Source: Gammaproteobacteria bacterium | GTDB lineage: Bacteria > Pseudomonadota > Gammaproteobacteria > UBA6186 > Azoamicaceae | Reading direction: 5' to 3' | Length of the DNA stretch: 64,000 bases | NCBI GenBank assembly: GCA_044225595.1 | Contig: JBGAIG010000008.1 | Coordinates: forward strand, 3,639 to 67,638 | Shown here: positions 18,073 through 21,270 of the stretch, one piece after another | Layout: every line of letters starts with the position of its first letter | How positions within the stretch are numbered: the first letter of the stretch is position 1 | The notes under the pieces: generated by a model | The model's input: the letters and a program-made list of their open reading frames with translations, nothing else | What the model was told of the DNA's origin: nothing | Databases searched by the model: none | Program-made: the position numbers and the translations under genes

Positions 18073-21000
18073 ATGAAAAAGCAAGAGAATTGTTTGGATG
18101 TAGGGTTACCACAAGAGATTTATGCTGGACAGTTAGAAACCATTAATGGAATAAATTTCACGCGGCGTGAAGTTGATGTTATTACCTGCATCGTGAGCGG
18201 AAAAACAGCCAAACATATAGCTGCATTTTTGTTTATTTCGCCTAAAACGGTTGAAAATCATATTCGCAATATTATGTTGAAAACAGGATGTAGAAGTCAA
18301 GCAGCCATCATTGATTTTTTAGAGAAAAGTGATAGGTTTTTGTCGATCAAAGATCATTACTCGTGTTTATTAATACAATATGCCTTTGCTTCAGAGTTGA
18401 AAAAAATTTCGAAAAGATTACCTAAGAAATTAAATTTCTTTATTGTTTTTAATAAACCCATCAAGAATACAGCCCAATTTTTTAACTATTTCATCAATGA
18501 TTTGCAAGTCGCTGGAATTAAGGTAGTGACTGAGCAGCGTAAAGAAGACGAAAGAAGTTTCTATTGGCTAGATAACATTAGACACTCTACGATTAAGACC
18601 ATACTTTACTATGTAGAAACAGAGCAGGTAGAACAGTTAGATTTTAAGGGAATAGAACAATTTATACGGCAGCATTCATATCGTTTGATTTTTATCATAG
18701 TTTCTAACGATACGGCGGTTCGGATGCTTCAGGAATGCTCTAATTTTGAAATCCTGGTGTTGCAAGAATCTAAAAATTATTACTTGTTTGTTTTCGAAGT
18801 ATTAAAAAAGCTACTGGCACCCCTAGATTTGCAAACAAGCATTTTATCTTTCAAACAACAATATGAAAAATTTTCTGGACTACAGCCTACGCAGGGAAAA
18901 CAAGAGCAAATTCAATCTCCTCTGTGGGATAGAAAACCCTCCTTTTTAAATATTCTGAAAAAGCAGAAAACGCTCCCATGGGCTGTCGGGACTCTATGTT
19001 TTCTGTTGATGGGCGTAGCGATTTTTTTAAATCTAACTTTTCAGCATCGTAAAGAAATACCGAATATGAGAACAAAGGGCCTTTATGCTTCTGTGAGATG
19101 GAATTTACCTAGACAAGATAATATTTTCATTAATAGAAAGCAATTGATGGAGACTTTAGTCAACCAATTTAATACTGTGCCAAAGCAAGAAAATCTTGTA
19201 TTCGAGTCGCATGAGCATATGCCTATCGTGAGCGTTTTGTCTGGGGGTGGAGGAGTTGGAAAAACGCAGTTAGCACTCCGATATGTGTATCAATTGAAAG
19301 AGATTTATACCCTTGAAGCTTGGTTTTATGCGGAAAATATTGCCCAATTAAAACAACAATACATTGACTTTTCCAAGATACTTGGCATCAAAGAAGTAAA
19401 TCCTTCTTTTGAATCAGCACTTTCTTATGTTAAAACATCCTTGTCTCAACGTTCAGATTGGCTTTTAATTTTTGACAACGTAACGTATTACCAGGAAATA
19501 AAGGATTTTTTGCCAGAAGGTAGGGGAAATATTATTATGACGACTCGCCAAAGGGATTGGCCAAATACCTTCAAATTATTAGACGTTAATGTTATGACTA
19601 AAGAAGAGGCTTTACAGCTTATAGTGTCGATAACAGGACGAAAAATAGATTCACAAACCCAAGAAACAGTGGAAAAATTAGTAAAAAGGCTGGGCTATTT
19701 ACCCTTAGCATTGGCTCAGGCTAGTGCTTACATTAAAAATAATGGTATTGGTTTTAAGAGCTATTTAGAGAGATACGACCAGATCGAACAAAAGATGTTA
19801 TCAGATCACACGATGCCATCAGGAACTGCGCATGTTCCAGTATCGATCACGTGGGTTACTGATTTTGAGGCAATCAAAAGAGAGGCAATCCAACAACGTC
19901 TTCCTCCGCTTGCTGCTATACTCATCACTGTTTGTGCTTATCTAGATCCTAATCAAATTCCAAAGGAACTTCTTGTACATTGGCTTAGAAAAACCTATCC
20001 TGAAGAAAAAGATCCCGATCTACTCCTTGATCAACTGTTGGGGCAGCTGAACCGTTATTCACTTATCACGCTAAATCTTGAAAAGAAAACAATCGATATT
20101 CATCGTCTCGTGCAGGCGGTTTTACGACACCAACATAGAGAAATGAAAAAGGGGATTGATCAATATCATTCACTTCTCAGCCAGTCCTGGTTTGAAAACC
20201 TTCTAAACGTTACTCATGAAGAATTTAATCGAAAAACATCTCTTATAGAAGAGGAGCAAAGAAAGCAATCCTTATTGCCGCATCTCCAATCGTTAGTTGC
20301 AAACTATAATCATTTAAATTTGGATCCTCAAAATTATACGGTAGCACTTATTACCTTCGATATAGGGTGTGCCCTGTTGTGTAAGGAACCGTCTTTGTCT
20401 AAGGTATATTTAGAACAATCTTTAAAGATCTTTGAGAAAAAGCATGGTTCGAATCATTGGTTCGTATCTAGAACATTAAGAAAGCTTGGGCATCTTGCTT
20501 GGGTTCTAGGTGACATTGATCAATCAAAGGCTTTGTTGGAAAAGGCACTGAGTATTGACGAAAAAATCAAGTCGAATGAATTAGCTAACACTTTAAACAA
20601 TCTTGGAAATATTTATGGGGTTTCAGGAAGAGTGAAGGAACAATGCCGATTACTAGAAAAGGCCTTAAAAATGGGCGAACAATCTAAGGAAACGAACAAT
20701 AGTAGTATCGCGATACGTTTAAATAATTTAGGAAACGCTTATGTTGCCTCTGGAGAGACGTATAAAGGAAAACAAATGCTAGAGCGTTCTTTAGCAATTT
20801 TTGAGCAAGAATTTGGTTGCGATTTTTATAAAGTGAGTAGTGTTCTAACAAGTTTGGGTCATGCAAATTGGGTTTTAGGGGATCTTGAGCAAGCTAAGAC
20901 TCAACTTGAAAGAGCCCTAAAAATAAAGGAAAGCTATTATCATGCAGAACACATAGCCATCGGCATATCCTTGAATAATCTTGGCAATGTCTATAAAGAT

Positions 21001-21270
21001 TTAGGAGATATCGACCAAGCGATATCTTGTTTAGAAAGAGCTTTAAATATCAGTAGGCAACACTACGGAAAAAGTCATTTAGCCACTGCAATTATTCTAA
21101 ATAATCTTGGAGAATTGCATTTGAGGGTTAATGATATGAACCTAGCAAAACCTTTCTTGATGCAAGCAAAAGAAATTAAACAAGAATACGGGCTAAACGA
21201 AACTTCATTAAATTTCGGAACCGAGTTCGGTATTTTAGGAGATGTCCATCACAAAAAAATAGATTTATGA
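18073..21270 (+). CDS. STAND NTPase: N-terminal LuxR/GerE HTH, uncharacterised alpha/beta region, one predicted TM helix, NB-ARC domain, TPR array
   Basis: HTH 'FTRREVDVITCIVSGKTAKHIAAFLFISPKTVENHIRNIMLKTG'. Hydrophobic helix 'LPWAVGTLCFLLMGVAIFLNLTF'. Walker A 'GGGGVGKTQLALRY', Walker B 'WLLIFDNV', 'IIMTTR', GLPL motif 'LGYLPLALAQA'. At least 6 KLC-type TPRs ('LNNLGN.Y...G....A...LE.AL.I'). Start taken at ATG 18073. Confidence 0.8.
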   Translation: MKKQENCLDVGLPQEIYAGQLETINGINFTRREVDVITCIVSGKTAKHIAAFLFISPKTVENHIRNIMLKTGCRSQAAIIDFLEKSDRFLSIKDHYSCLLIQYAFASELKKISKRLPKKLNFFIVFNKPIKNTAQFFNYFINDLQVAGIKVVTEQRKEDERSFYWLDNIRHSTIKTILYYVETEQVEQLDFKGIEQFIRQHSYRLIFIIVSNDTAVRMLQECSNFEILVLQESKNYYLFVFEVLKKLLAPLDLQTSILSFKQQYEKFSGLQPTQGKQEQIQSPLWDRKPSFLNILKKQKTLPWAVGTLCFLLMGVAIFLNLTFQHRKEIPNMRTKGLYASVRWNLPRQDNIFINRKQLMETLVNQFNTVPKQENLVFESHEHMPIVSVLSGGGGVGKTQLALRYVYQLKEIYTLEAWFYAENIAQLKQQYIDFSKILGIKEVNPSFESALSYVKTSLSQRSDWLLIFDNVTYYQEIKDFLPEGRGNIIMTTRQRDWPNTFKLLDVNVMTKEEALQLIVSITGRKIDSQTQETVEKLVKRLGYLPLALAQASAYIKNNGIGFKSYLERYDQIEQKMLSDHTMPSGTAHVPVSITWVTDFEAIKREAIQQRLPPLAAILITVCAYLDPNQIPKELLVHWLRKTYPEEKDPDLLLDQLLGQLNRYSLITLNLEKKTIDIHRLVQAVLRHQHREMKKGIDQYHSLLSQSWFENLLNVTHEEFNRKTSLIEEEQRKQSLLPHLQSLVANYNHLNLDPQNYTVALITFDIGCALLCKEPSLSKVYLEQSLKIFEKKHGSNHWFVSRTLRKLGHLAWVLGDIDQSKALLEKALSIDEKIKSNELANTLNNLGNIYGVSGRVKEQCRLLEKALKMGEQSKETNNSSIAIRLNNLGNAYVASGETYKGKQMLERSLAIFEQEFGCDFYKVSSVLTSLGHANWVLGDLEQAKTQLERALKIKESYYHAEHIAIGISLNNLGNVYKDLGDIDQAISCLERALNISRQHYGKSHLATAIILNNLGELHLRVNDMNLAKPFLMQAKEIKQEYGLNETSLNFGTEFGILGDVHHKKIDL

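Follow-up and report, generated by a model that had tools for sequence, protein, structure and literature searches.

How can a DNA-binding domain answer to a nucleotide-dependent switch when a membrane helix lies between the two? The question is raised by one gene in a stretch of 64,000 nucleotides, here called the window, from a gammaproteobacterium of the family Azoamicaceae (GenBank assembly GCA_044225595.1, contig JBGAIG010000008.1, positions 3,639 to 67,638). Counted from its ATG, the gene spans 18073-21270 of the + strand; a GTG at 18043 is an alternative start (open reading frame [ORF] 18043-21270). The 1065-aa product of the ATG start is identical to database protein P0001, from an NCBI assembly. 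It combines a LuxR-type helix-turn-helix (HTH), an alpha/beta domain, one transmembrane helix, an NB-ARC ATPase with its winged helix, and a series of tetratricopeptide repeats (TPRs).

The ATPase, winged helix and repeats belong to the STAND (signal transduction ATPases that have numerous domains) and NOD-like receptor (NLR) proteins, which are, as far as known, intracellular switches needing cytoplasmic ATP. The best explanation of the present protein, which we put at a little better than an even chance, is a membrane-spanning, ToxR-like bitopic STAND transcription regulator with its NB-ARC-TPR part outside the cytoplasm. Family-wide charge bias around the membrane helix and export signals on the closest relatives of the ATPase-sensor part carry this explanation, and the points that weigh against it are taken up below together with the alternatives.

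Architecture of the protein

The domain order had been listed by a first-pass annotation, and it is upheld by Pfam, by the motifs and by AlphaFold2; the residue numbers of that annotation are offset by about 10 aa from the present ones, which count from the ATG. At the N-terminus, the LuxR/GerE HTH occupies aa 29-82 (18157-18318, on the + strand like all parts of this gene) and is the predicted cytoplasmic output domain. It scores 56.3 bits against a cut-off of 23.5 with Pfam GerE (PF00196, E = 2.4e-15), which places it in the LuxR/GerE family. A PDB profile search matches it to the structures of GerE (1fse, E = 3.6e-12), VraR and NarL, and Foldseek superimposes the modeled HTH on 1fse with an rmsd of 1.2 A.

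Structure predictions were run with family alignments for aa 1-345 (mean predicted local distance difference test, pLDDT, 85; predicted TM-score, pTM, 0.75) and for the full length (pLDDT 84.5). In the N-terminal model, a four-helix HTH is followed by a long connecting helix (aa 89-115; 18337-18417) that is also visible in the alignment through its conserved Y96, F105 and L109. Behind it the model places a flavodoxin-like domain (aa 120-268; 18430-18876), with a (beta-alpha)5 core at 120-247, a capping helix at 254-268 and pLDDT mostly of 80-95. A lysine-rich linker predicted to be disordered (aa 271-298; 18883-18966; pLDDT<50) ends in ILKKQK right before the predicted membrane helix.

That helix, a predicted signal anchor (aa 300-322; 18970-19038; TLPWAVGTLCFLLMGVAIFLNLT), is the sole hydrophobic segment of the protein, with a Kyte-Doolittle mean of 2.18 over 19 residues. 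In the model it stands as an isolated helix (301-324) between the linker just described and a second one at 324-337, both with pLDDT<50.

The NB-ARC domain spans aa 343-581 (19099-19815) and begins at a WNLPRQD motif; Pfam NB-ARC matches aa 379-581 (E = 1.5e-8; 34.7 bits, cut-off 23.5). Its P-loop (19240-19266; GGGGVGKT) and Walker B strand (19462-19482; LLIFDNV) are followed by the TTR motif (MTTR) and a variant of GLPL (LGYLPLA), so that all the motifs quoted by the first-pass annotation are present. The winged helix (DUF7779, aa 608-687; 19894-20133; E = 4.8e-11) carries a nearly invariant H677 (in IHRL). The C-terminal putative sensor (aa 755-1038; 20335-21186) matches Pfam TPR_12 (E = 1.1e-40) and TPR_10 and resembles kinesin light chain (KLC) and LGN both in sequence and in fold; where at least six KLC-type repeats had been counted, the model has seven, built of 14 helices.

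The full-length model shows a canonical nucleotide-binding domain, helical domain and winged helix. In Foldseek the whole chain fits PH0952 best (6mfv, E = 6e-12), with Apaf-1, CED-4 and plant NLRs next, and the only solved nucleotide-binding oligomerization domain (NOD) matched by sequence is that of AfsR (E = 3.7e-8). The C-terminal two thirds are thus a bona fide STAND module with a TPR sensor. Motifs and fold assign it to the NB-ARC (AP-ATPase) clade of STAND NTPases, for which nucleotide-driven oligomerization is to be predicted.

One membrane helix and the sides it separates

The first-pass annotation had pointed to a topological paradox, in that a single membrane pass would put the HTH and the ATPase on opposite sides. 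The paradox is real. Among 91 HTH-bearing relatives from a protein search, each has exactly one strongly hydrophobic segment, with a median length of 20 aa. In a pooled sample of 184 proteins with both HTH and P-loop, drawn from that search and from a profile search with the middle domain, 176 have exactly one transmembrane segment at the same place and 3 a weaker one. From the segment it is 44-112 aa to the P-loop; what is conserved is the segment's position and hydrophobicity, not its sequence. No member has a candidate for a second segment: on a Hessa-type insertion scale, the next-best window of 19 residues scores above +4 kcal/mol in every case.

A buried helix together with a well-described regulator family would have refuted the first-pass reading, and neither was found. 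The helix is not buried: in the model it stands isolated between disordered linkers, and it is conserved as a transmembrane segment. The N-terminal region matches described families in its HTH only.

Which side is which can be read from the charges in the 15-residue flanks of the 176 helices. Lysine and arginine together average 3.98 on the N-terminal side and 2.42 on the C-terminal side, whereas aspartate and glutamate average 0.74 and 1.55. The N-terminal side has the higher net charge in 154 of the 176 proteins and the lower in 7, with 15 ties (Wilcoxon p = 7e-26), and in many members a KKxK immediately precedes the helix. The positive-inside rule makes this the pattern of a type II signal anchor with its N-terminus in and its C-terminus out, and the NB-ARC-TPR part is therefore predicted to be extracytoplasmic. 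The predicted orientation agrees with the need to keep a folded, DNA-binding N-terminus of 300 aa in the cytoplasm.

Predicted exported relatives that lack the HTH

The sister proteins of the ATPase-sensor part lend independent support to this prediction. The nearest NB-ARC-TPR relatives without HTH share the WNLPRQD motif, are 40-43% identical to the query and outscore one subfamily of HTH-bearing members (subfamily B) against it. By n-, h- and c-region rules for signal peptides, all of these nearest relatives carry a predicted export signal, either a Sec signal peptide or a signal anchor. P0041 starts with a predicted cleavable signal peptide (MLSIFKFTKIGFLRFIILQLICISAVSS|E), followed by SEFIR/TIR, NB-ARC and TPR domains. 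P0036 (L087 1977-6131), found on 9 contigs, begins MKHSYKFFSATLCILVSFFLIPYYVLA|ED and continues with a 500-aa domain without assignment before its NB-ARC-TPR part. P0369 has a predicted signal peptide, a TIR domain and a P-loop; P0021 is truncated at its N-terminus, and its start resembles the end of a signal peptide (..VVLA|QE). Beside the gene for P0041, in the same gammaproteobacterial metagenome-assembled genome (MAG), an ORF at L001 10870-13779 encodes a lysine-rich tail and one transmembrane helix that lead directly into WNLPRQD-NB-ARC-TPR. Two short proteins (P0366 and P0367) consist of a predicted signal peptide and a TIR domain alone.

In more distant NB-ARC-TPR homologues (Streptomyces, Chloroflexi, cyanobacteria, fungi), no hydrophobic segment is present, neither at the N-terminus nor internally. 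The clade marked by WNLPRQD thus appears, by these signal predictions, to stand systematically behind an export signal, whatever its N-terminal module. Taken together, flanking charges and sister proteins predict a cytoplasmic HTH and an extracytoplasmic NB-ARC-TPR part. The first-pass annotation had called such a placement implausible; the evidence now leans toward it.

Some of the predicted exported relatives lie together. In MFD05512.bin.2.113, positions 6151-13779 of L001 hold a tandem cluster of predicted exported NLR-like proteins: a signal peptide with SEFIR/TIR (295 aa), a signal peptide with SEFIR/TIR-NB-ARC-TPR (1246 aa) and an anchored NB-ARC-TPR protein (969 aa). Secreted TIR-NB-ARC-TPR proteins are not known to have been described. 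The same MAG also encodes a 2403-aa protein (L006 3465-10676) in which an OTU-like cysteine protease motif, DGSCAFHS, lies far upstream of NB-ARC-TPR; it is without a signal peptide and resembles OTU/NB-ARC candidate effectors reported for Wolbachia and Rickettsia.

A large family in intracellular symbionts

The protein is one of a large, previously undescribed family. The protein search returned 265 relatives, of which more than 90 bear GerE and cover 92-100% of the query at 24-57% identity. The middle-domain profile alone, scored against 1.84 billion representatives, matched 918 clusters (50% identity) with E <= 1e-3, or 621 with the stricter limit of E <= 1e-10, and in this search the domain always lies at about aa 80-280, just behind the HTH. 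A profile search of genome contigs mostly returned generic NB-ARC-TPR proteins through the P-loop, with full-architecture members only in L002-L005. Tandem and multiple paralogues occur, TPR number varies, and two variants (P0250 and P0304) keep HTH, middle domain, membrane helix and TPRs but have no ATPase. Searches of open-access text found no paper describing an architecture of LuxR HTH, transmembrane helix and NB-ARC-TPR.

Conservation falls on both the HTH and the ATPase. Across 75 members, the Walker A residues G391, G394, G396 and K397 are invariant, as are D468 (Walker B), T490, P544 and L545 (GLPL) and Y564; in the N-terminal half, R32 and E33 of the HTH, E84, Y96 and also P346 are so too, and T30 of the HTH is likewise listed as invariant in the family alignment. 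DNA binding and nucleotide binding are therefore both under selection.

Rickettsia endosymbionts of insects and Ca. Rickettsia vulgarisii carry full-architecture members (L003-L005). So do plasmids of Ca. Megaera polyxenophila from the ciliate Euplotes, where the transmembrane helix was verified, and of Ca. Paracaedimonas acanthamoebae from Acanthamoeba. Further members occur in Caedibacter sp., Holosporales and alphaproteobacterial MAGs, and an uncultured gammaproteobacterial MAG has several paralogues (L002, P0003). All named carriers are obligate intracellular symbionts; the window's own uncultured gammaproteobacterium is not among them. On one Ca. Megaera polyxenophila plasmid (CP113872.1; L086 1178-10700), a member sits among envelope and stress genes that are possible regulatory targets there, with Pal, porin, ferritin-like, DUF883, BON-domain and ChaB proteins as neighbors.

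The domain behind the helix-turn-helix

The first-pass annotation had suggested a TIR- or receiver-like domain between the HTH and the membrane helix, and this did not hold. Pfam, NCBIfam and PDB sequence profiles find nothing in the N-terminal region beyond the HTH; the region stands outside described regulator families, as had been proposed. The PDB profile search also paired the middle domain with Legionella lpg1496, but at E = 0.4 this was dismissed as noise. Foldseek with the N-terminal model gives weak, generic three-layer alpha/beta matches (best E = 6.5e-4), the middle domain resembling flavodoxin fusion partners, B12-binding domains, type II dehydroquinase (TM-score 0.62) and TIR domains.

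For aa 120-268, a TIR identity was set aside on the lack of a Pfam TIR match and of a conserved catalytic Glu, at a Foldseek E of about 7e-3 and TM-scores of 0.51-0.54 (5for, 4c6t). A receiver identity fared no better, with no Response_reg match, no CheY-like structure among the top 50 Foldseek matches and no conserved Asp. The invariant or near-invariant residues of the middle region are all hydrophobic or aromatic (F105, L109, L144, Y236/Y237, F241, F260), and the domain includes a motif NYYxFVFExLKKLL at aa 235-248; two of its strands are missing in some members. We read it as a family-specific scaffold or dimerization domain with a flavodoxin-like fold.

A conserved component of a conjugative element

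The gene lies in an ICE (integrative conjugative element). The attachment end of the element is formed by a tRNA-Met gene (14968-15044, + strand, by ARAGORN) and a tyrosine integrase (15144-16286, - strand, Pfam Phage_integrase). Its backbone (25683-57086, + strand, by Pfam scans) holds a YdaS-like gene, orf319, DUF6475, an N6-methylase, the tra genes, TraD and a relaxase. The transfer genes are of the F type (TraB, C, N, H, G), with a TraD coupling protein and a TrwC relaxase fused to a Toprim domain. The chromosomal flank keeps the gene order tsaD-rpsU-dnaG-rpoD; for its RpoD, identities of 85-92% are reached by MAG proteins only. By gene content, the element is an F-type ICE like the Rickettsiales amplified genetic elements (RAGEs), integrated at tRNA-Met beside rpoD.

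The ICE location claimed by the first-pass annotation is thus borne out, but the gene is not mere cargo in it. Two related ICEs carry an orthologue at the corresponding place, with the integrase end on one side and the tra operon on the other (P0004 in L081, 51% identity; P0003 in L085, 48%). The first of these ICEs lies next to rpoD as in the window, and the second does not. The three share the order int, (CsrA), YdaS/Cro-like 1, STAND gene, cargo, YdaS-like 2, orf319, DUF6475, and traL onward. Cargo between the STAND gene and YdaS-like 2 varies, being def in the window and a GNAT gene in L085. Identities among these ICEs are 48-51% for the STAND protein, 56-60% for TraC, 49-53% for TraB and about 65% for the integrase (full length, L081). 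A slot kept in three of three related ICEs and a divergence like that of the backbone argue for a conserved ICE component in the regulatory region rather than random cargo.

Directly upstream of the STAND gene is a 269-aa YdaS/Cro-like gene (17095-17904, + strand; a weak match to Pfam YdaS_toxin), and a second YdaS-like gene with 54% identity to it heads the tra operon (25683-26528, + strand). The cargo region lies between these two paralogues (270-280 aa), whose N-termini each show a weak Cro/YdaS-like HTH. L085 has this duplication too, which suggests that a duplication at the start of the tra operon brought the module in.

A 22-bp palindrome, CTTCTCCTCATGTGGGGAGAAG, lies at 17959-17980, 103 bp upstream of the ATG, with a second copy at 26289-26310. 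An inverted-repeat search, with zero copies expected by chance, gives its form as CTTCTCC(T/C)CA..TGGGGAGAAG. It also precedes the orthologue in L085 (9844), which has more copies at 14757 and 15860; these additional copies fall within YdaS-like 2 or close to it. The copies flank the segment with the STAND gene and cargo and recur at the same position inside YdaS-like 2 in two ICEs; the palindrome is a candidate operator or site for site-specific recombination. Scans for promoters and terminators near the STAND gene did no better than on shuffled sequence.

A divergent, accessory peptide deformylase gene (def; 21344-21964, + strand; Pfam Pep_deformylase, E = 1.6e-34) starts 73 bp downstream. 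The idea of a conserved def neighborhood did not survive comparison: def adjoins a homologue only in the window and in L083 (next to P0002, the closest homologue), 2 of about 9 contexts, and the latter copy belongs to a def-cmk-rpsA neighborhood on the chromosome. With only 31% identity between the two Def proteins as well, a functional partnership was rejected. The ICE-borne Def falls below all NCBIfam cut-offs (best 105.6 bits, against 125).

Several other features of the window and its relatives deserve mention. Two ORFs that overlap each other (356 and 571 aa; 22204-24968, - strand) fill the space from def to the tra-proximal genes and are ICE cargo without a Pfam or NCBIfam match. An N6-adenine DNA methylase fused to a type I specificity (HsdS-like) domain (28092-29954) lies between two DUF6475 genes and is absent from the two related ICEs. 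Just beyond the relaxase, a second sigma-70-family gene (59252-60865) encodes a 537-aa protein with regions 1.2, 2, 3 and 4 and part of the non-essential region; the housekeeping rpoD is at 13027-14919. An AAA_14/DUF4143 ATPase gene in the chromosomal flank (6292-7515, - strand) has a counterpart in L084 (17403-18629) beside the tandem STAND paralogues P0011/P0016, which sit near integrases. Rickettsia members of the family are found among RAGE-type cargo such as SpoT and histidine-kinase fragments.

Proposed mechanism and its alternatives

In the general STAND scheme, an ADP-bound, autoinhibited monomer binds an inducer, exchanges its nucleotide for ATP and multimerizes, which activates the effector (PMC6468293). 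The mechanism proposed here is modeled by analogy on MalT, PH0952 and AfsR for the STAND side and on ToxR and CadC for the membrane side. The LuxR HTH and the flavodoxin-like domain would stay in the cytoplasm, the signal anchor would cross the inner membrane, and the NB-ARC, winged helix and TPRs would lie in the periplasm. A ligand would bind the TPR sensor and relieve autoinhibition; the NB-ARC domain would then swap ADP for ATP and multimerize. Through the transmembrane helix, multimerization would gather the cytoplasmic HTHs, and promoters near the membrane would be turned on or off; LuxR HTHs bind DNA as dimers, so clustering would be expected to switch promoters. Since the gene adjoins the ICE's Cro-like regulators, the element's own genes are the most likely targets.

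In this scheme the host would need to supply the ATP. Tlc/NTT carriers bring host ATP into Rickettsiales and Holosporales; ATP must therefore reach their periplasm, and an extracytoplasmic ATPase becomes conceivable. That the protein is a true transmembrane NLR, an exported receptor fed by host ATP in the periplasm, signaling inward to the LuxR HTH by oligomerization and belonging to a wider, likewise undescribed clade of exported NLR-like proteins, seems to us a proposition with slightly less than an even chance.

Hundreds of members place the ATPase-sensor module behind a predicted export signal. If they do export it, they would represent a new class of bacterial transmembrane receptor with the first NLR-type switch outside the cytoplasm, and an exported ATPase would be categorically new beyond STAND transcription regulators. 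A bacterium or a conjugative element could then register its presence in a host cell, or detect a ligand from the host or the periplasm. We know of no regulator identified for the transfer decision of RAGE-like elements in intracellular symbionts. With its intracellular-symbiont carriers and its place in the regulatory region of a RAGE-like element, the family is a concrete candidate for host-environment sensing and for the timing of transfer by symbionts or their elements.

Several observations weigh against an extracytoplasmic ATPase. To our knowledge, no STAND or NB-ARC ATPase works outside the cytoplasm: all characterized STANDs are cytoplasmic and ATP-requiring, and the invariance of the Walker A and B, sensor and GLPL residues implies nucleotide dependence here as well. 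Five of the 184 members (P0112, P0243, P0256, P0322 and P0331) are cleanly without the transmembrane segment and keep the rest of the architecture, so that in those members the module must be cytoplasmic. The C-terminal part has no bias toward even numbers of cysteines (45% even, n = 148), and hence no disulfide signature of export; its cysteine content is 0.62%, against 0.73% in non-HTH, mostly transmembrane-less homologues. Periplasmic ATP is itself only inferred, from the ATP/ADP translocases of Rickettsiales and Holosporales. Lastly, the 22-bp palindrome is absent from L081, one of the three ICEs.

The first three of these points, together with AfsR as the closest solved NOD by sequence, would fit a regulator of the AfsR/GutR type whose NB-ARC-TPR part is cytoplasmic and whose helix only tethers the protein or self-associates, through monotopic, post-translational, conditional or otherwise unconventional insertion. 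We consider this unlikely, though it is the strongest competitor. A uniformly hydrophobic helix of 19-24 residues (Kyte-Doolittle 2-3) flanked by linkers is a standard signal anchor for the signal recognition particle and Sec, and is too short for a hairpin and not amphipathic. Nor would such a regulator explain the family-wide positive-inside asymmetry or the cleavable signal peptides on sister NB-ARC-TPR proteins.

With the topology preferred here, the outer NB-ARC-TPR part could instead trigger site-1/site-2 cleavage and free a fragment of HTH and alpha/beta domain, a release that the first-pass annotation had entertained and that is possible rather than specifically supported. Among bitopic regulators, anti-sigma factors are an established case of regulated intramembrane proteolysis, and long disordered linkers flank the helix on both sides. 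Yet no protease gene is conserved beside the family in the contexts examined, neither linker nor helix has a conserved cleavage motif in a sequence that is itself not conserved, and regulators of the ToxR/CadC type act while tethered; proteolysis is an improbable route.

Slightly more improbable again is a host-targeted effector that leaves the bacterium and anchors in a eukaryotic membrane, as the paralogues combining a signal peptide with TIR-NB-ARC-TPR, or OTU with NB-ARC, might do. These close paralogues look like secreted effectors, and the named carriers of the family are endosymbionts. The RAGE literature names TPR proteins only as putative effectors, and RAGE cargo TPR proteins are so regarded (PMC10732058); Wolbachia and Rickettsia NB-ARC proteins have been proposed to target the host (PMC6133264, PMC5062602). 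Against this, the LuxR/GerE HTH is a bacterial DNA-binding module with invariant recognition residues, an internal signal anchor would hold the protein in the inner membrane, and the gene sits among ICE regulatory genes.

An antiviral (Avs-like) STAND or abortive-infection gene, with TPRs that sense a phage or plasmid protein and the N-terminus or membrane helix as effector, is a reading that the first-pass annotation had raised, and it is very improbable: defense STANDs do use an NB-ARC-TPR architecture (PMC13581612), the gene lies on a mobile element that also carries a type I-like methylase/specificity fusion, and paralogues are multiple, in tandem and variable in TPR number, but PADLOC returned no Avs or other defense model beyond generic TPR models and HTH-region matches (CARF3, DpdC), the effector position is taken by a transcription-factor HTH rather than a nuclease, protease or TIR domain, the predicted place of the sensor, outside the cytoplasm, is one where phage proteins do not occur, and the hosts are obligate intracellular bacteria.

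Comparison with known systems

A bitopic STAND regulator can be set beside known proteins from both of its sides. On the STAND side, AfsR, a large Streptomyces antibiotic regulatory protein (SARP; PDB 8k60, 8jke), likewise joins an N-terminal DNA-binding effector to an NB-ARC-type NOD, an arm and a TPR sensor. It differs in having an OmpR-type winged HTH and a BTAD domain, no flavodoxin-like insert and no transmembrane helix, and in being soluble, cytoplasmic and actinobacterial. Membership in the AfsR/large SARP group was rejected: Trans_reg_C and BTAD are missing, and the NCBIfam AfsR model reaches 68.7 bits against a cut-off of 1430, through the TPRs only.

GutR, the glucitol activator of Bacillus subtilis, is compared here by description only. 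Leipe and colleagues are said to have described it in 2004 as an N-terminal HTH, an NB-ARC-type ATPase and C-terminal TPRs; it differs from the present protein in being soluble, without a transmembrane helix or an alpha/beta insert. In both AfsR and GutR the effector is the N-terminal DNA-binding domain (PMC10936776). The C-terminal domains of AfsR autoinhibit it and ATP activates it (PMC10936776; bioRxiv 10.64898/2026.09.02.748808), and GutR is activated by its inducer and then ATP (PMC10936776, PMC13581612).

MalT and other large ATP-binding regulators of the LuxR family (LAL), with PH0952 (PDB 6mfv), share a STAND ATPase, a TPR-like sensor and a LuxR-type HTH with the present protein. The resting form of MalT/PH0952 is autoinhibited by contacts between NOD and sensor and multimerizes on ATP binding (PMC6468293). 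In MalT/LAL proteins, however, the HTH is C-terminal, the NOD is of the MalT type and the protein is cytoplasmic. LAL/MalT membership was rejected on the N-terminal place of the HTH and on an NCBIfam MalT match confined to aa 23-76 (25.8 bits, against 537).

FxsT (NF040586) and defense STANDs of the Avs type have NB-ARC, winged helix and TPR modules in common with the present protein, but their N-terminal module is another one, and the present protein has a predicted export signal. FxsT is the best NCBIfam match, and it remains below its cut-off (aa 346-693; 269.8 bits, against 300), covering profile positions 2-336 of 830, which is the NOD only; the FxSxx-COOH partner of the FxsT system is not present. 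Avs membership was rejected on the PADLOC result and the HTH in the effector position.

Proteins of the ToxR/CadC/TcpP type have an N-terminal cytoplasmic DNA-binding domain, one transmembrane helix and a C-terminal periplasmic sensor, and their self-association controls DNA binding. For the STAND protein a topology of this kind is predicted, from the single transmembrane helix, the positive-inside bias and the export signals of its sister proteins. ToxR-like proteins differ from it in their OmpR-type winged HTH and small periplasmic sensors; they have no ATPase and no sequence relationship to it, so that the resemblance is functional and not one of family. The paralogues P0041, P0036, P0369 and the product of L001 10870-13779, from the same bacteria, likewise place a WNLPRQD-type NB-ARC-TPR part behind a predicted export signal (40-43% identity), but they lack the HTH, and the whole protein is predicted to be exported rather than membrane-spanning.

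The first-pass annotation had known of no precedent for the arrangement, and this is true in part. An N-terminal DNA-binding domain with NB-ARC-TPR is already known from AfsR and GutR, and a LuxR HTH with a STAND ATPase from MalT/LAL proteins. New are the transmembrane helix that separates effector from NOD, the insert with its flavodoxin-like fold, and the predicted export signal that the family has in common with its sister proteins.

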